Shown here in pieces: positions 3,002 to 12,394 of a DNA stretch of 12,795 nucleotides (its first letter is position 1; each line of letters begins with the position of its first letter). The notes under the pieces are model-generated. The model ran no database searches. It worked only from the letters and a program-made list of their open reading frames with translations, and was not told the DNA's origin. Both the position numbers and the translations under genes were made by a program. Source of the stretch: a virus; UHGV virus genome UHGV-0061597; one strand, 5' to 3'.

Positions 3002-3424
3002 TTAGCCATCGGATAGGCGCTCTTTTGCCTCTTCGATTAAATCAGCACAAATAAGAGGTAGCTCTGATGAAACAACTTCCCAGCCAGATTTTTTAACAAC
3101 TTCATTTAACCACTCTTCTCGATCGTGAGTTCCTCTTCTTTTTTCTAGGAGGAAGATTTGAGAGTAAATCTGAATGGCCTTCTCGTTTAGATAAAACGCA
3201 TATTGCCTGTTTAAAACAACATCTGCAAGTATATCAATGCCTTGTTGGGTTTTTGCCGCTACATCTGGCTCTACTCCCATACGAATAGATAAATCGCATA
3301 ACTCAACAAATGCACGCTCTTCAGCGTCGTATTTCATTTTGTAAAAATGTGAAGCCAGTTTTTGTGTTTCGGCGAGTTCTGCCCTTAATTTTTTTATCTT
3401 GCTTCTCGTTAATATACCAAACAC
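3002..3424 (-). CDS. Hypothetical protein, third gene of the minus-strand cargo cassette; start probably GTG at 3424, alternative GTG at 3487
   Basis: The ORF track gives 3002..3487 (161 aa), but its first codon is GTG and the first ATG is 50 codons in. An in-frame GTG at 3424-3422 is preceded by a strong Shine-Dalgarno on the minus strand (AAGGAGG, 5-nt spacer), giving about 140 aa. No transmembrane segment and no motif I recognise. AT-rich codon usage like the two genes upstream of it. Confidence 0.6.
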   Translation of the reverse strand: MFGILTRSKIKKLRAELAETQKLASHFYKMKYDAEERAFVELCDLSIRMGVEPDVAAKTQQGIDILADVVLNRQYAFYLNEKAIQIYSQIFLLEKRRGTHDREEWLNEVVKKSGWEVVSSELPLICADLIEEAKERLSDG

Positions 3425-3551
3425 ACCAACCTCCTTAGTTTTACGCAGGATACCAGATGGTTTGGAGTGAGATAAAGGTTTGTCCACTTTTGGCTATAGC
3501 TTTATGTATCCGTGACGGATGTAATTATCACGGATGCATAAAAATTATATT

Positions 3552-4100
3552 TTAGTGTAATCTCTGATCGTCTGAATCGTGTAAGAACTCCATGAGACTT
3601 TGAACCGGAATTGGTTCTATTGATGACAATGTGAACACAGGAATATTGAGACTTTTGCAACGCTCAAACACTCCCTTATCATGAGTCCATACCTCGTCAG
3701 CATTAATTGCTCTTGCAATTGCTATTATTTGTCTGTCAAACTTAATTTTATTTGCTGTACCTTCTGTGCTAATTTTCCTTAATTCTTTTAATGTTGGTAT
3801 CGATGCGCATTCAATAGCAGCCAACTCATCAAATGATACAGTCTCGAAGCACGATAACGATTTGATAACATTCAGTTTTTCTTGTTGGTAATCTTTATGG
3901 ATTCCAACTAAAAACTCCGCCAATACAGGAGTTGGAACGATGATTGTCCCGTTCTTGTTATCTATTCGATCAACAAGAGCTTCTGCTCTTCTTTTGGCAT
4001 CTGGAATCTCAGAACCAAGTATAGGGTCAGATAATCTATAATCGTGTTCTATATCTGATAGTAGGTATACCAGAATATTGGTATCTAAAATTACTCGCAA
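3552..4100 (-). CDS. PIN-domain (VapC-like) putative ribonuclease
   Basis: 182-aa translation starts MRVILDTNILVYLL, the typical PIN beta1 motif with the first catalytic Asp. Further acidic residues are spaced as in PIN folds (LAEF, DRQIIAIA, WTHDKG). TTG start at 4100-4098 preceded by GAGGAAG. It overlaps the stop of the upstream gene by 10 nt, which indicates translational coupling. Confidence 0.75.
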   Translation of the reverse strand: MRVILDTNILVYLLSDIEHDYRLSDPILGSEIPDAKRRAEALVDRIDNKNGTIIVPTPVLAEFLVGIHKDYQQEKLNVIKSLSCFETVSFDELAAIECASIPTLKELRKISTEGTANKIKFDRQIIAIARAINADEVWTHDKGVFERCKSLNIPVFTLSSIEPIPVQSLMEFLHDSDDQRLH

Positions 4101-4810
4101 TTTATCTTCCTCAGAGTCCTAAGGATTGAATCAACATCGCGTTCCTCGGACCACTGATCTCCAGGAACTTGCTTGATAGCATTAATAGCATCCTTGAGTG
4201 ATGATTTTTTGAGCAATACAAATGAAGTTATTTTTAGTTTCTTTAGCTCCCATTTGTTGTTCTTTTTTTCCCAGCACCCATCTCCTTTAACCCTAATATA
4301 TTTGAATAGATGGGACCCAAGAGCTGCCGCCAAATCAGGGGTTGCCTCGCACTTGAATGTTTCACCGTTGGCTCCCTCAATACGCACAGGTATTGAGTTG
4401 TCTTTTCCGCCAACACTGTATAGCCTTCCTTGAACTTCTGACGTTTTTGTTATGAGTAAAGGGATTGGCTCCTTTTTTACTCGCGGGAATGCGATAATGG
4501 TTGAGTGGTTTCGTCCGAGTAGTTTCGCTGAAAAACCATCATGTTCCAGTAAATTAACAATTTTTTGATACGCGGGTGATTTCTCTTTGGCTGAGAGAGA
4601 GGCCCTTGCTATGACAGCGTTATAACAAATATCATTATCGACCCATGCATTTAAGTCAGCCGATCCTTCACTTACACAGTCGAAGTGAACAGAATCTGCA
4701 GAACCGTATAGATCTACGAGAGCAGACATATACTTGACCAACTTAGCCATTGACAGCTGGCCAGGGGTGGTTCCGTCAAGTTTTAATGTGAGTCCATTGC
4801 TTTTTTTCAT
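4091..4810 (-). CDS. Hypothetical protein, upstream partner of the PIN nuclease (candidate sensor or antitoxin-like component)
   Basis: 239-aa ORF with ATG at 4810-4808 and stop TAA at 4093-4091, overlapping the PIN gene start. No transmembrane segment, no Walker motif, no family I recognise. Far larger than a canonical VapB antitoxin. Same orientation as mnt, 49 bp downstream of the mnt stop. Confidence 0.75.
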   Translation of the reverse strand: MKKSNGLTLKLDGTTPGQLSMAKLVKYMSALVDLYGSADSVHFDCVSEGSADLNAWVDNDICYNAVIARASLSAKEKSPAYQKIVNLLEHDGFSAKLLGRNHSTIIAFPRVKKEPIPLLITKTSEVQGRLYSVGGKDNSIPVRIEGANGETFKCEATPDLAAALGSHLFKYIRVKGDGCWEKKNNKWELKKLKITSFVLLKKSSLKDAINAIKQVPGDQWSEERDVDSILRTLRKINCE

Positions 4811-4859: not shown

Positions 4860-5114
4860 CTATAACTTACTTTTGCTATAAATATTTTTCAGCGTTTCAA
4901 AGACCATCTTCTTAACAACGTCAGATTGCTCATCCGCGACTCGCTCAGCTTCGTCTCGATAGCCTACAATTGATGATGGCTTTGAGAGAGCATCCTGAAC
5001 GATTTGTAATAACTCAGAGTTCATTGACCTTCCGTTAGCCTCTGCTCTTAATTTCAATTTTTCTCTTACTTCCAAAGGCATACGGAAGTTAAAGTGCGGA
5101 TCGTCTCTAGCCAT
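4860..5114 (-). CDS. mnt: Mnt repressor (ribbon-helix-helix, immI maintenance-of-lysogeny repressor)
   Basis: 84-aa translation MARDDPHFNFRMPLEVREKLKLRAEANGRSMNSELLQIVQDAL closely matches my memory of P22 Mnt, and its N-terminus has the same RHH motif as Arc. It is divergently oriented from arc, with the operators between them. Confidence 0.9.
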   Translation of the reverse strand: MARDDPHFNFRMPLEVREKLKLRAEANGRSMNSELLQIVQDALSKPSSIVGYRDEAERVADEQSDVVKKMVFETLKNIYSKSKL

Positions 5115-5141: not shown

Positions 5142-5162
5142 ATGATAGAAGCACTCTACTAT
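5142..5162. promoter_or_regulatory. Arc operator (Oarc), 21 bp
   Basis: ATGATAGAAGCACTCTACTAT matches the P22 arc operator sequence as I recall it (TAGA half-sites). It lies between the divergent mnt and arc genes, where Pant and Pmnt overlap. Confidence 0.75.
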
Positions 5163-5170
5163 ATTCTCAA

Positions 5171-5189
5171 TAGGTCCACGGTGGACCTA
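5171..5189. promoter_or_regulatory. Mnt operator (Omnt), a perfect inverted repeat overlapping Pant
   Basis: TAGGTCCAC-G-GTGGACCTA, 9-bp arms around one central base, seen directly. It contains the GGTCCACGGTGGACC core of the P22 mnt operator as I recall it and sits about 16 bp upstream of the arc ATG. Confidence 0.8.
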
Positions 5190-5204
5190 TATTGTGAGGT
5201 AAAT

Positions 5205-5363
5205 ATGAAAGGAATGAGCAAAATGCCGCAGTTCAATTTGCGGTGGCCTAAAGAAGTATTGGATTTGGTGCGCAAGGTAGCTGAAGAGAACGGGCGATCT
5301 GTTAACTCTGAGATTTATAAGCGAGTGATGGACAGCCTGAAGAGAGAGGGGATAACGGTATGA
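5205..5363 (+). CDS. arc: Arc repressor (ribbon-helix-helix)
   Basis: The ORF track starts at 5142, but the real start is the ATG at 5205 preceded by GAGG (5196-5199). The translation [52 protein letters not shown] (52 aa) is nearly identical to P22 Arc as I recall it. Confidence 0.92.
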   Translation: MKGMSKMPQFNLRWPKEVLDLVRKVAEENGRSVNSEIYKRVMDSLKREGITV

Positions 5364-5581
5364 GGTTTATTGAGGTTGATGAGATTGGCTATGAGAATGC
5401 ACTTGGTAGAGGTAAATCTTTAGTTAACGTTAATGGCATTGAGTCGATAAGGAGCGGTGAATTTACGGAGATCAGAATGATGTCAGGTGGAATCATTCCT
5501 TGCCGTGATTCAGTAGAGTCAATCAAAGCAAGAATGAGTGGTCAGTGGCTTTATAACTACAGTGACTTACAAAAACAGTGA
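5360..5581 (+). CDS. Hypothetical small protein (73 aa) translationally coupled to arc
   Basis: Its ATG overlaps the arc stop (ATGA at 5360-5363). A purine-rich tract AGAGAGGGG lies upstream. It fills a roughly 280-bp arc-ant gap that I recall being short in P22. No recognisable domain; coding status unverified. Confidence 0.4.
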
Positions 5582-5642
5582 AGCCCCAACTGCTGGAACA
5601 GTCGGGGCTTCGGTATCAACAAATCAGATAGGAATTATTGAT

Positions 5643-6572
5643 ATGACAAGTTTAGCAAAGTCAACATTAAATTGCACTAACAGCATCACCATTTCAGACG
5701 TCAAGATTCATATGGATTCAGAGGGGCGTTACTCGCTTAATGACCTGCACAAGGCATCAGGTAAAGAGCGTCGTCATGAGCCTGCGGCGTGGCTGCGACT
5801 CGAACAAACCAATGAGTTAGTTCAAGAAATTCTAAATACACAGATGTGTGTATTTAAAAATGGCGATAACTTTAATTCTTCAGAATCGCAGATTAAGAAG
5901 CCAATGGACTCTAAGAAGGGTCGCTACGGAGGCACCTACGTGTGCAAGGAGCTTGTTTACTCCTACGCCATGTGGATTAGCGCAGCCTTTGCGCTGAAGG
6001 TTATCCGTGCATATGACGCAATGGTTACTGCCACACAAGAGAGGAAAGCTATTGGCGGTAAAACTTCAGTAGCTGAACGCACACCGCTACGAGATGCAGT
6101 AAACATGCTGGTAGGAAAGAAAGGACTTCGCTATGACGATGCATACAATATGGTTCATCAGCGTTTTGGTATTGACAGCATTGATGAACTTTCAATTGAA
6201 CAAATCCCGCTGGCCGTAGAGTACATCCACAGGGTAGTGCTTGAAGGTGAGTTCATCGGCAAACAAGAGAAGAAAACCAACGAGCTTTCTGCAAAAGAAG
6301 CAAACAGCCTTGTATGGCTATGGGATTATGCCAACCGCTCACAGGCATTATTCCGCGAACTGTATCCGGCATTAAAACAAATTCAATCGAACTATTCCGG
6401 CAGATGTCATGACTGCGGTTATGAGTTCTCCCGTATTATCGATATAGCGAGAGACGTTTTAATCAATCACACACGAGATGTTGATATCAATGAGCCAGAC
6501 GGACCAACGAATCTTTCCGCATGGATGAGACTTAAGAATAAAGAATTACCTCCTTCAGTACATAACTACTGA
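5643..6572 (+). CDS. ant: Antirepressor, KilA-N domain type (Ant)
   Basis: The long ORF starts at 5538, but the ATG at 5643 with an upstream AGGA puts the KilA-N-like motif ([32 protein letters not shown] ... [18 protein letters not shown]) at the N-terminus. A C-terminal antirepressor-like domain follows. It sits downstream of arc in the immI operon. 309 aa from 5643. Confidence 0.8.
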
Positions 6573-6590
6573 CAGATAACCAACGCAACG

Positions 6591-6614
6591 ACCCAGCTTC
6601 GGCTGGGTTTTTTT
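6591..6614 (+). terminator. Rho-independent terminator after ant
   Basis: ACCCAGC-TTCG-GCTGGGT stem-loop followed by a 7-nt T run, 19 bp after the ant stop. Confidence 0.85.
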
Positions 6615-6750
6615 ATGCCCAAAATTCACCGCAGCAACTAAGCGGCGATGGCCTTGATGGATAGCACTACACAAAAAGTGTAGTGCAAAAAGCAAACAAA
6701 TACTCACCGTAGCTACGCTGCGGCGATTCATTGTATCTGGAGCAAATTAA

Positions 6751-8808
6751 ATGACAGACATTACAGCCAATGTTGTAGTGAGTATGCCTTCGCAACTCTT
6801 CACTATGGCGCGTTCTTTTAAAGCCGTAGCCAATGGCAAAATTTATATCGGTAAAATTGACACTGACCCGGTAAATCCTGAAAACCAGATTCAGGTTTAT
6901 GTGGAGAACGAAGACGGCTCTCACGTTCCTGTTCCGCAACCAATCATCATTAATGCTGCTGGATATCCGGTATATAACGGACAGATTGCCAAATTCGTTA
7001 CTGTACAGGGCCATTCTATGGCTGTTTATGATGCGTACGGTGTGCAGCAGTTCTATTTTCCGAATGTGCTGAAGTATGACCCGGATCAGTTAAGACAAGA
7101 GTTAGCAACAGAGGGTAATGAAATACTTGTTGACGACTCCCGTATTGCAGTTAAAAGTGTTCATGTAAATTCAAAACTTAGAACACAGCACAATAAAAAC
7201 GCAGAAATAATCACGCCAAATGATTTTATATCAAATTATGACATGATATCTGCAGCTATTAACTCTGGAGAGAGTGCCGCAGTATTTAATTCCAGGTATG
7301 CATTCACAATAACAGTTGGGGAATATGGTAATTTTAAATCTATTAGTGATGCTCTAAACTCGGCTGTTGCACTGCGTCCACTATGGAAAAATGGCATTGA
7401 CTTTTGCATAATTAAAATTCTTTCCGGTTTTGTGCTCAATGAGCAAATAGAAATTTCAGCAGGATGTGACTTATCATGGATTAAAATAATATCAGAAGAC
7501 TCAGTGGTTTTCTCTGATACCAGTTTGTTTACTAAAACTGTTAGGACGTATTACGAATACAAATATTTATTTTACATTTGCGATGCAGCAAAAAGTCCTG
7601 TATTTGCTATTCAGATTGAAGAAAATAGAGATGATAGCGATGTTTGTGCATTTATTGTAACTCAAAAAGCTGAACTTAATTTCTATCCGTATTCAGGTGC
7701 TCGAAAGTTCTACGTTGGAATTCATGGTAGTTTTGGTGCAAAAATTAGTGCATATCATACCGGATGTGCTCCTGATGAGGAAAGTGTTGCTGCATATATG
7801 CCAGAAGGATATTACGTATGTGATTTTTCTTATAGCAGATACTCTTCCCTGCAACTGGTAAATAATGTCAAGGCATCAATGCCTGTAAGCAAGTTTGAAC
7901 GGTGCACAGAGAGTACGGTTGCGTCAGTTAATTGTATTTATAATGTTAAAGCAGATTTTCAGGGGTCAAGTGCAAGCTATTGTTATATAGGATGGAATGT
8001 AAGAGATGGTTCAAATGTTAATATACGCGACCATAAAACTATACATTGCTCATATCGTGGATTAACCTGCATTCATACAGCATATGTTGATGCAAGACGA
8101 CATGACGTTGAAGAAAGTGATGCAGAAACAAGTGGTAAAGTCCTTGAACCAAATATTGAAAAAGGTTTTTATGGATGTGCACTTGGTGTGCGTATTGATG
8201 GTGCGGGTTGCGTTGATGTTGCTGGTAATGATATGCGCAATTGTGGAACAGCCGTTAATGCAGACACTGGTGCTGTTATTTCAGGAAAGGCTGTAGATAT
8301 CTCAGGGGCTGAGCTGGGATTTGATTGCCATGCAGGAGCATCTGTTAATTTTCCAAGGCTATGGGGTACAGATATAAAAAAATTAATGCACCTCCAAGAT
8401 GGTGTAAGGTTTAACTCTAATATTTGTCATGTATTTGGTGCAAATCCCACAAAAGATATTAGATGGATTGATGTAGAGAGATCTGAAGCTTCTTTTATGA
8501 ATGCAACGCTGGATGCAGATTCAGGATTTATTGCCGACTGTGGTAGTAGGATAACCATTGAAGGAAGTAAAGTTAAAAACCAAACAATAAGAAGTTTTTT
8601 TGGATCACATGTGGCTATAAATAATACTGTTGCTGACAGAACTTATTCAGATATAGCCGATGTTCCGCAGTTGACTATTAGTGGAGGATCTTTTATTTCT
8701 GCTACAGGATATTCTAATTCTGACTCCAGCCCTCTTAGGTTGAGCACAACACGAAATACACTTGGAGTTGGAGGAGCCATATTTTCAACCAATGGGGAAG
8801 TTTCATGA
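6751..8808 (+). CDS. Tailspike protein: P22-like N-terminal head-binding domain fused to a divergent receptor-binding domain
   Basis: The first ~113 aa ([34 protein letters not shown] ... NVLKYDPDQ) closely match the P22 gp9 N-terminal domain as I recall it. The remaining ~570 aa show no resemblance to P22 gp9 and are Cys-rich and AT-rich. GGAG lies upstream of the ATG. 685 aa. Confidence 0.92.
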
Positions 8809-9101
8809 TTAAGAGCATTGATGTCACTCCATTTCTTCACTCGCTTTGCGCTTTTGTGGCTCAGGTACTGGTTGGTATTTTTACCGGAAACTGGGCTTAC
8901 GGTGCGATAGCCGGTTGTACGTTCTTCATTGCGCGTGAACACACCCAGGCAGAATATCGCTGGATAGAAAAGTTTGGGAAAGGGAAACGTATCAACATGC
9001 CGTGGTGGGGAGGTTTTGATCCACGCGTGTGGGATGTGGGAAGTCTGTTGGATTTTGCTGTTCCTGTTGTTTTTTGTTTTTGTGTTTATTTCTCTATTTG
9101 A
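8805..9101 (+). CDS. Small hydrophobic (membrane) protein of unknown function, coupled to the tailspike gene
   Basis: ATG overlaps the tailspike stop (ATGA at 8805-8808). 98 aa with two hydrophobic segments ([27 protein letters not shown] and [18 protein letters not shown]). No family recognised. Confidence 0.55.
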
Positions 9102-9294
9102 CTGCTACCGCGCCATTAAATGGTGCGGTATTCAACCTGCTCTTCACTGTTTGTTTCTTCAGAGTCATGTAAAAGGTGAGCTTTATTCTCGGCATGAAAA
9201 ACAGGGAATTGACGATGTTAAAGTAACAAAAAACCATAAATGGTTTATTATGCGTAATGCTTTACTGTTCAGGAGGTTGTTATGCATATAAACG

Positions 9295-9708
9295 GTGGAA
9301 AACATGTCAGCTCAACTAACCAGTGAAACTTTAAATCAGTGGCTTAGCATGAGTTCTCTGGCGGCGGTGATAGCAGGAGTTCCTCCTGAGGTTGCTTTGG
9401 GTGCTTTGGCTGGAGCGGTAATTTTTGTTACCTCTGCAGTAGAGTACCCCATCCGTCGCCGGGTGCTCCTGTCGATGCTCAGCTTTCTTTGCGGCCTTCT
9501 CTTTTACAAACCAGCAGCATCAATTCTTATCGGCATAGCCAGCCTGATCCCTACCATCACGCAGGACTCTTTTGAAAAAGGGATTGTTTTCTCTGCAGGC
9601 GCATTCGTGTCAGCAATTGTCGCTGTGCGTATTGGTATATGGCTCTATCACCGTTCCGATAATCCACGCGAGTTAATTCCGGGGAGAAAAGACGATGGTA
9701 ACGCATGA
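9295..9708 (+). CDS. Putative holin or lysis-associated membrane protein (multi-TM)
   Basis: 137 aa with at least three hydrophobic helices. First gene of a tightly overlapping set of four ending in endolysin and Rz. The start is uncertain: GTG at 9295 or ATG at 9304. Confidence 0.55.
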   Translation: MENMSAQLTSETLNQWLSMSSLAAVIAGVPPEVALGALAGAVIFVTSAVEYPIRRRVLLSMLSFLCGLLFYKPAASILIGIASLIPTITQDSFEKGIVFSAGAFVSAIVAVRIGIWLYHRSDNPRELIPGRKDDGNA

Positions 9709-10003
9709 GTTTTTTTTGCTTATCACCAATGCAGTTATTTGCACTGGCATAGCAATTCGCGTTGTCACATTCCGGCGTAACGGCTCTCAACACCGAAGGT
9801 GGGGAGGATGGCTTGCTTATTTCCTGATTGTTGCTGCGGCCAGTATTCCTGTTCGTGTCGCCTATGCAATCTGGTTACGTACGCCAATGGCTGTGGATTT
9901 ATCTGAGGTCATTATCAACGCTGTCATGCTAGCTGCGGTTATTAAAACGCGCGGTAACGTCGTTCAAATTTTCAAAGTATCGAGGTCTAAACATGGAGAT
10001 TAA
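9695..10003 (+). CDS. Putative holin or antiholin (2-3 TM)
   Basis: 102 aa with hydrophobic segments and a charged C-terminus (KVSRSKHGD). Overlaps the upstream gene by 14 nt and the endolysin start by 11 nt. Confidence 0.6.
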
Positions 10004-10622
10004 ACAATTCCAGCGAGCTGCTGGTATCAGCGAGGCACTGGCCGCACGCTGGTTCTCGCATATAACTTCTGCGATGAAAGAGTTTGGTATCAGCAAACCA
10101 GAAGATCAGGCTATGTTTATTGCTCAGGTCGGGCATGAGTCTGGAGGCTTCACCCGGTTGCAGGAGAATTTCAACTACAGCGTCAGCGGACTGGCTAACT
10201 TTGTTCGGGCTGGGCGTCTCACTCAGGGACAGGCCAACGCATTGGGGCGACGTGCAGGCGAACCACCATTGCCACTTGAGCGCCAGAGAGCGATTGCCAA
10301 TCTGGTGTACAGCAAACGCATGGGGAACAATGCCCCTGGTGATGGCTGGAACTACCGTGGGCGCGGGCTTATCCAGGTTACCGGTTTGAATAACTATCGT
10401 GACTGTGGAAACGGTCTTAAGGTTGACCTGCTGGAGAGTCCTGAACTGCTGGCGCAGGACGAATACGCGGCTCGTAGCGCGGCGTGGTTCTTTGCCAGCA
10501 AAGGATGCATGAAGTATACCGGCGATATTGCACGTGTAACTCTGATTATCAATGGTGGCCGGAACGGCATCGACGACCGGCGCGCGCGATACATCAATGC
10601 CAGTAAGGTGCTGGCGGTATGA
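9993..10622 (+). CDS. Endolysin, glycoside hydrolase family 19 (chitinase-like lysozyme) type
   Basis: 209-aa translation ([22 protein letters not shown] ... [20 protein letters not shown] ... [13 protein letters not shown]) matches GH19-type endolysins of Salmonella podophages as I recall them. GAGG lies 6 nt before the ATG. Confidence 0.9.
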
Positions 10623-11101
10623 TCTGGGCATTCGTAAAAGCATACCGGAAACAGTTGATTATCATGGCGGTGCTTGCTGTTCTGGTCATATCAGGAGTTG
10701 TTGCCTGGAGTGTACACGGCAGTCGTCAGTACGACGCCGGGTATGCGCAGGCGAAAGAAGACCGCAAAACCGAAGATGAGAGAATTCGTCAGCACTACGA
10801 ACAGGAGAAAGCGATCAATGAACGTGAAGCGCAGCAGAGGATCGACCAGGCGCGCAATGATGCTCTTGATGCTGCCGCTCGCGCTGGCCGGTTGCAGCAA
10901 CAGCTCGTTGCCATCCGTGAGCAGCTCAGGCAGTATAACGCCATTGTCGGCGCTGGGACGTCAGCCGCAGACACCGGAGTTTTGCTTGCCGACGTGCTCA
11001 GTAAATCTCTCGAGAGAAACAGACAACTGGCAGAGTATGCTGACCGGGCAGCCGAAGCCGGAAGAGTCTGTGAAAAACAGTACGACACCCTGACCAGATA
11101 G
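10619..11101 (+). CDS. Rz-like i-spanin
   Basis: ATG overlaps the endolysin stop (ATGA). 160 aa with an N-terminal transmembrane helix ([18 protein letters not shown]) followed by a charged coiled-coil periplasmic domain. Contains an embedded +1-frame lipoprotein gene. Confidence 0.85.
10818..11093 (+). CDS. Rz1-like o-spanin lipoprotein, embedded in Rz in the +1 frame
   Basis: The internal ATG at 10818 is preceded by AGGAG (10803-10807). Signal peptide with lipobox ([13 protein letters not shown]) and a Pro-rich mature part. Lies wholly inside the Rz ORF. Alternative starts at 10857 or 10860 are possible. Confidence 0.7.
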   Translation: MNVKRSRGSTRRAMMLLMLPLALAGCSNSSLPSVSSSGSITPLSALGRQPQTPEFCLPTCSVNLSRETDNWQSMLTGQPKPEESVKNSTTP

Positions 11102-11256
11102 CATGGCATTTTTCATGGTACTGATTTCCGGTGACGGTATATAAAACGGTACGATAAAAATTGAGATTTGGAAAAATGTTATCACTCAATTGGTTATGGT
11201 TATCGTAAATAATTGAGTGGGAATGATTTTAATCCCTGCACTATGAATGAACAAAA

Positions 11257-11282
11257 CCCTCTGTTACTACAGAGGGTTTTTT
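11257..11282. terminator. Bidirectional rho-independent terminator between the lysis cassette and the convergent minus-strand operon
   Basis: CCCTCTGT-TACT-ACAGAGGG hairpin flanked by AAAA upstream and TTTTTT downstream. Sits between convergent genes. Confidence 0.75.
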
Positions 11283-11320
11283 ATCTTCAAGAATCATAGG
11301 CTTGAAGTTACTAACATCGA

Positions 11321-11860
11321 TTAATTAAACCAGCTGTCCGATTTGTTCTCTTCTGCTTTGCCCACGCTTTTCATCAGATCGCGACCGCCTTCAGTCATAT
11401 TTCTGTTGGCGTCAGCTTCAGATTGCACCACATCGGTTTGCGCAGCTTTGTGCTTCAGTTCCTGATCGATAAATTCGTTTTCTCGCTTAACGCGGGCTTC
11501 TTCTTTTGCCAGCGCCAGTTTTTGTTTCTGAATCTCTAAGCTGCGTAGCTCATCTTCATAACTTTGATCGCGTTTTTTGTCCGCAGAGGCTTCGGCGTCC
11601 AGTTTATCCTGACGAGCTTTCTTATTTGCCGCTGCCGTTGCCGCTCTTTTGTTAGCGGCGGCCTGGGCATTTGCGCGACGTTGCTTCTCTTGCTGGATTT
11701 TCCTGTTGCGCTCCGCGACCCATTCGTCATGCTGCCTTTGCTCTTCATTTTTACCTTGCTGTTCAGCTTCTGCTACAGCAGAGAGTTGATCCTGCAATGA
11801 TGAGGCGATAGCCGGATAGCTTAAGGAGGCCAAGATGGCGCAAAGAAAAACTTTCTTCAT
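11321..11860 (-). CDS. Secreted/periplasmic Lys/Ala/Glu-rich coiled-coil protein
   Basis: 179 aa with an N-terminal signal peptide (MKKVFLCAILASLSYPAIASS) and a highly charged low-complexity body. AGGAGGAG lies upstream on the minus strand, 15 bp after the lipoprotein gene stop, so the two are probably one operon. Confidence 0.7.
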   Translation of the reverse strand: MKKVFLCAILASLSYPAIASSLQDQLSAVAEAEQQGKNEEQRQHDEWVAERNRKIQQEKQRRANAQAAANKRAATAAANKKARQDKLDAEASADKKRDQSYEDELRSLEIQKQKLALAKEEARVKRENEFIDQELKHKAAQTDVVQSEADANRNMTEGGRDLMKSVGKAEENKSDSWFN

Positions 11861-11875
11861 GACTCCTCCTGATTA

Positions 11876-12394
11876 TTAGCTCTTTTCAGGACATTTAGTA
11901 TTTGGCTGAATACGCGTTTCGTTATACGTTGTGGTAATAACAACGGCTAAACCTGTCGTAAACTGGCACTCTTTACCCACCTGGGTAGAGGTATACACTT
12001 TGGTGCCTTCCTTATATGTTAAAGAAACACCTTCCACTAAGGTTTTATCATTCACCATAGAACCCACTGCCGCGCCTACAGCTCCGCCGCCAACTGCCCC
12101 TGCCGTCGTTCCGGAATTGCTGCCAGAACCGACGTTGTGGCCGATAACACCGCCAGCGACTGCGCCAATAAGCGCGCCGAAGGCTTGTGCGTTCCGTTTA
12201 TTTTGGGAGTTGTCTACGGCAACTTTTGCGGGAAGAATGGAAATAATATTAACGGTTTTAGTTTCTTGTTTGGTATTCAGTTGATCGGTTTGATAAACAT
12301 CGGCGGCATGATCGTCAGCATTTGACTGGCATCCTGCCAGAGTGAATGACGCTAACATTGCCACAGGCAGAAGACATTTTTTAAATTTCATCAC
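11876..12394 (-). CDS. Lipoprotein with glycine-zipper domain (YcfJ/SlyB-like family)
   Basis: 172 aa with signal peptide and lipobox (LAGC), and a glycine-zipper motif (FGALIGAVAGGVIGHNVG) resembling E. coli YcfJ as I recall it. AAGGAA lies upstream. Followed to the right by a roughly 200-bp extremely AT-rich region. Confidence 0.75.
   Translation of the reverse strand: MMKFKKCLLPVAMLASFTLAGCQSNADDHAADVYQTDQLNTKQETKTVNIISILPAKVAVDNSQNKRNAQAFGALIGAVAGGVIGHNVGSGSNSGTTAGAVGGGAVGAAVGSMVNDKTLVEGVSLTYKEGTKVYTSTQVGKECQFTTGLAVVITTTYNETRIQPNTKCPEKS

Follow-up and report, generated by a model that had tools for sequence, protein, structure and literature searches.

Why should the translation of a small membrane protein be coupled to the end of a virion gene? 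The question is raised by a stretch of 12,795 nucleotides (nt) from UHGV virus genome UHGV-0061597 (hereafter the window, meaning this whole stretch at its full length), which is the right end of an Escherichia coli P22-like (Lederbergvirus-type) prophage, and in which an open reading frame (ORF) of 98 amino acids (aa) starts on the stop codon of the tailspike gene. The original prediction, made from the nucleotide letters, had considered this coupling odd and had listed superinfection exclusion or receptor masking, lysis timing and tailspike assembly as candidate roles. We find that the gene is not tied to its present tailspike: it is a conserved occupant of the slot 3′ of the receptor-binding gene. 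The elements at the junction are as follows.

6751-8808, plus strand: tailspike gene, the upstream coupling partner, with a head-binding N-terminus of the type found in P22 and a receptor-binding domain that varies
8794-8799, plus strand: Shine-Dalgarno-like purine-rich GGGGAA, 5 nt ahead of the ATG and within the tailspike coding sequence
8805-8808, plus strand: ATGA overlap (ATG of the ORF at 8805-8807, TGA of the tailspike at 8806-8808)
8805-9101, plus strand: ORF for the 98-aa predicted inner-membrane protein (PHROG 1443, 'Ybl63'), ATG start, stop codon included
8974-9291, plus strand: overlapping +1-frame ORF, 105 aa, TTG start, spurious
9060-9100, plus strand: T-rich tract, 68% T (window 28%), encoding the Phe/Val/Cys-rich end of the predicted third helix

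A genuine gene of a widespread family

The 98-aa ORF and its start on the overlap can be read directly from the sequence. The original prediction would have been abandoned had the frame not been conserved in related prophages; it is conserved there, with a median pairwise ratio of nonsynonymous to synonymous substitution rates (dN/dS) of 0.15 in the ORF frame (49 distinct homologous sequences) and stops in the other two frames. This ratio, together with the matches to hidden Markov models (HMMs) and the hundreds of homologues described below, places ORF 8805-9101 beyond chance, and it is a genuine gene. The T-rich 3′ end seen by the original prediction at about 9060-9100 is likewise present, and because of this tract the +1 frame resembles a hydrophobic ORF. 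That overlapping frame, 8974-9291, was rejected as a gene, as the original prediction had anticipated: it is interrupted by stops in L003, L010, L016, L017 and L021, which are relatives that share the downstream DNA.

Two candidate starts were considered, the ATG at 8805 and the ATT at 8817. The latter is codon 5 of the ORF, opposite which most homologues have their initiating Met in the alignment, and the GGGGAA at 8794-8799 may serve the former as a Shine-Dalgarno-like site. In strain GN02461, RefSeq/PGAP annotates the identical gene with 94 aa (L161, 9013-9297), started at that ATT and not at the upstream ATG.

The protein is a member of PHROG 1443, which is labelled "unknown function": its residues 5-98 match positions 1-94 of the 97-position profile (E=3.3e-55), and it shares with the family its length, three hydrophobic segments and a motif described below. 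This family has no assigned function and no Pfam or NCBIfam model. The UniRef cluster holding the exact window sequence is named 'Ybl63', and 428 homologous clusters were found at 90% identity. An HMM search of 1.84 billion representative proteins returned 433 clusters at 50% identity, and the best 150 matches were all stand-alone proteins of ~60-140 aa without domain fusions. Among viruses, tblastn found the gene in 63 phage records of GenBank, with Escherichia phage HEMP4 reaching 100% identity, and a homologue is present in 434 IMG/VR contigs. By blastn, 1918 of 5426 complete E. coli genomes (~35%) carry a copy. Carriers have it at a median of 2 genomic places and at no more than 7, and the annotation is always "hypothetical protein"; the copy of strain BL21 lies in the Qin prophage. 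In phage 21 the orthologue is CPT_21_24, with the annotation 'putative membrane protein'.

Searches of Pfam, NCBIfam and PADLOC gave no match for the window protein, and Pfam searches with 102 divergent members, one by one, gave scattered sub-threshold matches of transmembrane type only. Sequence searches of the PDB with two profiles gave no match, and Foldseek against BFVD found nothing at E<0.3. In the literature searched (by PHROG id, accessions, name and descriptive terms), we found no paper on the PHROG 1443/'Ybl63' family. The family has thus been catalogued before, and its placement behind receptor-binding genes and its Sphingomonad orthologues, both set out below, are in no paper found.

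A conserved occupant of the slot behind receptor-binding genes

The tailspike of the window carries a head-binding domain (Pfam PF09008, E=1.8e-66) and matches tail PHROGs end to end, with phrog_5662 along its full length. In a context survey, the ORF was located in 79 of the best 80 IMG/VR loci (from 434 contigs) and the nearest upstream ORFs were taken; one representative per upstream-ORF size class was scanned against PHROGs, with L042 (167 aa) set aside. All scanned classes had matches to tail-fibre or tailspike PHROGs, with the exception of a 92-aa protein that itself lies behind a side tail fibre. The classes were P22-type tailspikes of 663-924 aa, which differ in their C-terminal domains, and fibre-tip proteins of lambdoid type with 346 or 227-234 aa.

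Named phages follow the same pattern. JEP4 has the tailspike and then the homologue with an ATGA overlap, and in EC.W1-9 and PhiR55_1 the homologue likewise lies behind the receptor-binding gene. The order in phage 21 is side tail fibre, 92-aa protein, homologue; in a Stx2k phage it is J, Lom, tail protein, homologue; and in 611R6 it is tailspike, O-acetylase (OafA-type), 37-aa fibre remnant, homologue. Beyond these, the homologue follows a 2520-aa gpJ in a Comamonas prophage and tail-fibre gene H in P2-like prophages of Aeromonas and Leclercia, one of whose partner fibres carries its own Peptidase_S74 intramolecular chaperone domain; it adjoins the tail-fibre gene in Aeromonas jumbo phages and lies behind a receptor-binding gene in Chelativorans and Desulfovibrio prophages. 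The 4-nt overlap recurs in the Aeromonas P2-like prophage (with H), in the Chelativorans prophage, in contigs L157-L159 of a metagenomic phage, where the partner is a tail protein of 675 aa, and in the IMG/VR loci L004-L008, L011, L013-L015, L018 and L019. For high-GC (guanine plus cytosine) alphaproteobacterial loci, where naive ORF calls are noisy, only contexts with called genes and Pfam labels were relied on.

The phages that show this pattern are of podo-, sipho- and myovirus type, and the proteins encoded upstream differ widely: the C-terminal 250 residues of 21 partner proteins fell into at least eight classes without detectable mutual similarity. The slot is thus occupied in P22-like, lambdoid and P2-like phages, with several single examples in other phages of Proteobacteria. 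The coupling in the window is as tight as the original prediction had described. A link to a receptor-binding gene is the rule for this family, which, like the existence of chromosomal members outside phages, had not been anticipated.

In several tail-fibre loci, the membrane gene co-occurs with a gene for a small acidic soluble protein of ~90-100 aa (phrog_1361/phrog_18574), carried by phage 21, PhiR55_1, the Qin prophage of BL21 and the metagenomic phage. This protein may be a second accessory gene product of those fibre cassettes. Its loci are as follows.

L001, 4710-4988: small acidic protein (phrog_1361/phrog_18574)
L157, 4549-4851: small acidic protein (phrog_1361/phrog_18574)
L160, 3995-4276: small acidic protein (phrog_1361/phrog_18574)

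Mosaic junctions at both ends of the gene

Comparison of window positions 5500-11300 with related loci by blastn placed breakpoints on either side of a conserved core.

8817-9064, plus strand: conserved ORF core, codons 5-87, a DNA island common to many otherwise unrelated phages, with mosaic junctions at both ends

On the upstream side, homology starts at 8817/8818 in seven independent loci that have other receptor-binding domains (L003, L010, L022, L024, L028, L029 and L086). Because homology begins at codon 5, the first four codons, ATG included, belong to the tailspike cassette in this lineage. On the downstream side, the breakpoints lie near codons 87-89: homology stops at 9064 in L002 and L024 and at 9070 in lambdoid loci (L001, L028, L029 and L086); JEP4, which is among the 9064 cases, has the tailspike and the ORF in common with the window up to that position and diverges beyond it. 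In L003, L009, L010, L021 and L022, homology of 88-94% runs continuously from 8817-8883 to ~11,224-11,300, so that in some relatives the ORF is co-inherited as one block with the lysis cassette.

The ORF is therefore the conserved downstream limit of an exchangeable receptor-binding cassette, whose upstream limit is the head-binding domain, and the ORF may also act as a homology arm in cassette exchange. This boundary fits a proposal that the conserved flanks of receptor-binding domains are recombination hot spots (PMC10408124). The GC content is 38% in the tailspike gene, 45% in the ORF and 44% in the window, and the low value of the tailspike gene is consistent with a receptor-binding cassette acquired separately.

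Predicted topology, conserved residues and expression

The original prediction had described a two-helix hydrophobic protein. Two hydrophobic regions are indeed present, with Kyte-Doolittle means that reach ~2.0-2.4 across residues 9-43 and 78-98 and a polar basic stretch with 7 Lys/Arg between them, but AlphaFold2 (24 homologues; predicted local distance difference test score, pLDDT, 87.9) predicts three helices, at residues 8-27, 30-56 and 78-97, with G28-N29 splitting the first 35-residue hydrophobic stretch into a hairpin. The product is predicted to be a small integral inner-membrane protein composed of a transmembrane hairpin, a basic loop and a third transmembrane helix.

8826-8885, plus strand: helix 1, residues 8-27 (AlphaFold2), with nearly invariant H12 and conserved Q20
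8892-8972, plus strand: helix 2, residues 30-56 (AlphaFold2), with a hydrophobic N-terminal half and the C-terminal half R44-E45-H-T-Q48-A49-E50-Y-R52
8934-9035, plus strand: conserved basic segment, residues 44-77, with 7 Lys/Arg, including R62, P66 and invariant W76
9036-9095, plus strand: helix 3, residues 78-97 (AlphaFold2), with conserved S80, D83 and P87

Conservation was scored across 102 divergent family members with <60% identity to each other. In this set E45 and W76 are invariant, H12, R44, Q48, A49, E50 and P87 are conserved in ≥90%, and Q20, G28, G33, Y51, R52, I54, R62, P66, S80 and D83 are strongly conserved; the motif H12...R44-E45-x-x-Q48-A49-E50...W76...P87 is complete in the window protein. 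The mean number of Lys/Arg per sequence is 5.4 in the 44-77 loop, 0.12 in the turn between helices 1 and 2 and 0.8 in the short N-tail, and by the positive-inside rule these counts place the N-terminus and the loop in the cytoplasm. The nearly invariant basic loop (residues 44-78) thus probably faces the cytoplasm, and the conserved polar residues would cluster near the cytoplasmic face of the membrane. A lipoprotein was considered and rejected: there is no lipobox, as the sequence L-H-S-L-C15 has Leu at -1, and Cys15 is Ala or Ile in homologues.

Consensus scans found no promoter-like (sigma-70-like) site ahead of the gene in the window, JEP4 or phage 21. The lack of an own promoter and the ATGA overlap with a late gene point to late, tailspike-linked expression; the gene is probably expressed late, together with the tailspike, and expression from a repressed prophage is unlikely, judged from these sequence features.

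Homologues on Sphingomonad chromosomes

Members of the family are also found outside phages. In Sphingomonads, the homologue stands within a conserved chromosomal order of dienelactone hydrolase (DLH), ligA, X and prmA (opposite strand), in a clade of 552 clusters that come mostly from soil metagenomes, and no phage genes were found near this ligA-adjacent homologue in the contexts with called genes and Pfam labels. A chromosomal homologue next to ligA and away from phage genes argues for a cell-autonomous role of the family, at least in Sphingomonads.

What the protein may do

The reading that we favour, tentatively and with slightly less than even confidence, is that the protein is a late inner-membrane effector that works independently of the receptor, and that its gene in addition marks the 3′ boundary of receptor-binding cassettes. 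The ORF would be translated via coupling or re-initiation at the tailspike stop (ATGA), and the protein would be present only late, alongside the tailspike. It may then act at the cytoplasmic membrane, independently of the receptor and of the receptor-binding domain, a step that we propose with low certainty, and its likely working site would be the polar cluster of H12, R44-E45, Q48, E50, R52, R62, W76 and D83 near the cytoplasmic face. Receptor-binding domains are exchanged against the ORF, and the tailspike cassette supplies its start codon in this lineage. The conservation and the ligA-adjacent orthologues could fit, again with low certainty, a ligand-, ion- or substrate-binding membrane protein such as a minimal enzyme, transporter or regulator of a conserved membrane component, and they are harder to reconcile with a holin, a receptor mask or a fibre chaperone. 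Minimal membrane enzymes of the DgkA type, with three transmembrane helices and ~120 aa, offer an analogy. The window protein resembles them in its size, its three predicted helices and its conserved acidic, basic and His residues near the cytoplasmic face, but has no sequence or fold match to them.

Several points weigh against this reading. The constant position could mean a direct functional link to receptor-binding proteins, and the breakpoints from which the cassette boundary was drawn are approximate to a few bases. The promoter scan used a crude consensus, and a weak or non-sigma-70 promoter could lie within the tailspike gene. The topology is derived entirely from charge bias, the C-tail carries some Lys/Arg in about half of the members and is hence ambiguous, and the depositors of the phage 21 orthologue quote two transmembrane domains (TMDs; TMHMM).

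Among the alternatives, a regulator of lysis timing is unlikely, though less so than the others. Such a protein, antiholin-like, holin-modulating or linked to membrane energisation, would be made with the last virion protein and would delay or tune holin triggering. In the window, the gene for this late, small inner-membrane protein lies 194 nt upstream of two holin-family genes, which open the following lysis cassette.

9295-11101, plus strand: lysis cassette with two holin-family genes, a GH19 endolysin and Rz with embedded Rz1 (Pfam and PHROG matches)
9295-9708, plus strand: Phage_holin_8 gene (Pfam/PHROG)
9695-10003, plus strand: Phage_holin_3_7 gene (Pfam/PHROG)
9993-10622, plus strand: GH19 endolysin gene (Pfam/PHROG)
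10619-11101, plus strand: DUF2514 Rz spanin gene (Pfam/PHROG)
10857-11093, plus strand: Rz1-type o-spanin, 78 aa, lipobox present, in the +1 frame within Rz 10619-11101

The homologue adjoins the lysis cassette in the window and in EC.W1-9-type relatives, the block of 88-94% identity in L003, L009, L010, L021 and L022 joins the two, and in the Comamonas and metagenomic phages an overlapping chain of small genes follows the homologue, with a lysozyme gene nearby. There are also precedents for the position: the T7 holin gene 17.5 follows the tail-fibre gene 17, and the T4 holin gene t follows genes 37-38. Antiholin-type lysis suppression in phage CSP1 needs a tail-fibre gene together with its two neighbours, one of which encodes a membrane-anchored protein (PMC13577005); this offers a precedent by analogy only. 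The T7 and T4 holins and the CSP1 genes thus share with the window protein the arrangement of a small, late inner-membrane protein encoded directly behind a fibre or tailspike, but the window protein has no sequence or profile similarity to holins and has a conserved polar motif and cellular orthologues, and most members of its family are encoded away from lysis genes. In lambdoid phages (phage 21, PhiR55_1), JEP4-type phages, P2-like phages and the Stx2k phage, the homologue is distant from the lysis genes. These four groups also use different holin types, which makes a single conserved antiholin hard to picture. Comparison of the family with both window holins by hhalign gave a probability of <1%, and there is no Pfam holin match, one of the 102 members reaching Phage_holin_8 below threshold (E=0.0036). 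Holins and antiholins do not typically have a nearly invariant polar loop, nor orthologues among housekeeping genes. As for the analogy itself, CSP1_021 has 235 aa and one TMD (PMC13577005), unlike the 98-aa window protein, and CSP1 has no homologue of the family, no Cronobacter phage being among the tblastn matches. The suggestion of lysis timing in the original prediction keeps some plausibility in view of the lysis cassette that is co-inherited in several relatives, but it loses ground to the distance from lysis genes in most other phages.

For E. coli phage CSP1, PMC13577005 cites the GenBank record KY982929 (L165), which bears the title 'Cronobacter phage CSP1', agrees with the paper in length (60,222 bp) and carries gene numbers that differ from those of the paper.

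To a further reading we give rather little credence. Here the family would be a general membrane factor of tailed phages of Proteobacteria, coupled to receptor-binding genes and borrowed from a cellular protein that persists beside ligA in Sphingomonads, with a cytoplasm-facing polar site dedicated to a single defined reaction or interaction. It could then be a minimal membrane enzyme, a transporter, or a checkpoint that ties completion of the receptor-binding protein to the state of the membrane or to lysis. If so, that activity would be the reason why three phage morphotypes keep the gene translationally linked.

Three features argue jointly against lysogen-expressed exclusion, receptor masking and a tailspike-specific chaperone, namely that the protein does not vary with the receptor-binding domain, that its gene has no own promoter, and that it has cellular orthologues. 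Superinfection exclusion at the cytoplasmic membrane, by which the protein would block entry of an incoming genome as T4 Imm, P22 SieA and HK97 gp15 do, appears improbable to us. The exclusion genes cor of phi80 and fun(Z) of P2 lie beside receptor-binding genes. More generally, many small inner-membrane proteins of phages act as exclusion factors, SieA among them (PMC10883804), and exclusion genes often adjoin receptor-binding genes, as T5 llp does (PMC9586334). The window gene resembles known exclusion factors in encoding a small phage inner-membrane protein next to a receptor-binding gene, and it is very common in E. coli prophages (the 1918 of 5426 complete genomes above, with up to 7 copies).

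Closer comparison weakens the likeness. The window protein has in common with T5 Llp (PMC9586334), phi80/N15 Cor and P2 Fun(Z) that it is a small envelope protein encoded beside a receptor-binding gene, but Llp and Cor are outer-membrane lipoproteins directed at one receptor, whereas the window protein would be a polytopic inner-membrane protein that is the same whatever the receptor-binding domain. With T4 Imm, P22 SieA (PMC10883804) and HK97 gp15 it shares the cytoplasmic membrane and small size, but these proteins are expressed early or from the prophage, whereas the window gene has no own promoter and, given its coupling to a late structural gene, would be expected to stay silent in lysogens. 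No similarity to this group was found via Pfam, which has the T4 Imm family, or via any PADLOC model, with SieA and gp15 outside the direct comparison. In addition, the protein is shared by phages of podo-, sipho- and myovirus type, whose entry routes differ; it is present in jumbo Aeromonas phages without lysogeny annotation in the stretch examined; and its chromosomal orthologues stand in a housekeeping context. The resistance of lysogens that the original prediction had envisaged is accordingly weakened by a gene whose start overlaps a late gene and which has no promoter-like site.

We have still stronger doubts about an assembly factor or virion accessory, that is, a membrane platform or chaperone for maturation or attachment of the tailspike or fibre, or a tail-carried aid to membrane penetration. 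The gene stands exactly where tail-fibre chaperone genes such as tfa and P2 gene G are found, and it often shares 4 nt with the receptor-binding gene; apart from a truncated remnant in BL21, the lambdoid and P2-like carrier loci have no annotated canonical tfa; the homologue lies within virion structural modules in Desulfovibrio and Halomonas prophages; and it co-occurs with the small acidic phrog_1361/phrog_18574 protein in several fibre loci. Lambda Tfa, T4 gp38 and P2 G occupy the same slot 3′ of a fibre gene and are often translationally coupled, but they are soluble and co-vary with the fibre tip, whereas the window protein is strongly hydrophobic, predicted to be membrane-integral, and invariant across unrelated tips. 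P22-type tailspikes fold without accessory proteins, which also counts against such a role. Pfam found no chaperone family domain (Caudo_TAP, DUF4376 and similar) in the window protein or the family members, fibres with their own Peptidase_S74 chaperone also have the homologue, and non-phage orthologues exist.

Tailspike-specific assembly and receptor masking, both put forward in the original prediction, are weakened by the diversity of the partners. At least eight unrelated classes of receptor-binding domain precede the same protein, and breakpoints between domain and ORF show that recombination separates the two, so that we rejected a mask or a chaperone specific to one receptor-binding domain. 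Unlike the O-antigen conversion proteins encoded behind P22-type tailspikes, the window protein has no GtrA-like, glycosyltransferase or acyltransferase-3 domain (Pfam); 611R6 has an acetylase of OafA type as an additional gene, which lies between the tailspike and the homologue.

A neutral hitch-hiker, kept in E. coli phages merely by flanking the module that is most often exchanged and without a role in the life cycle, would account for the mosaic junctions on both sides of the ORF and for its presence after recombination scars (the 37-aa fibre remnant in 611R6) and in decayed prophages (Qin of BL21), but is very improbable, since a dN/dS of ~0.15 and motif residues that are invariant across Alpha-, Beta- and Gammaproteobacteria and Desulfovibrio reflect purifying selection that requires a function at the protein level.

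Other features of the window

The remaining features of the window are given below.

9-821 and 821-2977: genes for ejection/DNA-transfer proteins
3002-4810, minus strand: three genes (161, 182 and 239 aa) between the ejection-protein genes and mnt
4860-5114, minus strand: mnt, immI region
5142-5363: arc, immI region
5538-6572: ant, immI region
9106-9130, plus strand: 11-bp GC-rich hairpin without a U tract, 5 nt past the stop of ORF 8805-9101, between the tail and lysis genes
11321-12394: host genes yfgI and yfgH, after the lysis cassette

Two of the three minus-strand genes at 3002-4810 match PHROGs of unknown function (phrog_21691 and phrog_19868) and the third matches none. In P22, sieA and further accessory genes are found at this position, and the three genes are candidates for prophage-expressed exclusion or defence. 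The hairpin at 9106-9130 has a minimum free energy of -17.6 kcal/mol (z=-3.6 versus shuffles), and a consensus terminator scan makes no call there; it could be an RNA end-stabiliser or a weak or partial terminator between the tail and lysis genes. The lysis cassette forms the extreme right end of the prophage and directly adjoins yfgI/yfgH, and in EC.W1-9, a free phage, the integrase comes after this cassette, an arrangement unlike that of P22, whose lysis genes sit far from the tailspike.

Implications for tailed phages and their receptor-binding proteins

The gene behind the tailspike is one of the commonest unannotated genes of E. coli prophages. Its breakpoints provide a natural downstream boundary of receptor-binding cassettes, which is usable for the design of host-range swaps and for the prediction of mosaic joints, and the Sphingomonad orthologues provide a non-phage system in which the biochemical activity of the family could be found. 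If there is a function behind the position, this would matter for the engineering of tailspike and fibre swaps, and if the fixed position reflects that function, the protein would be a missing component in how tailed phages finish or exploit their receptor-binding proteins.

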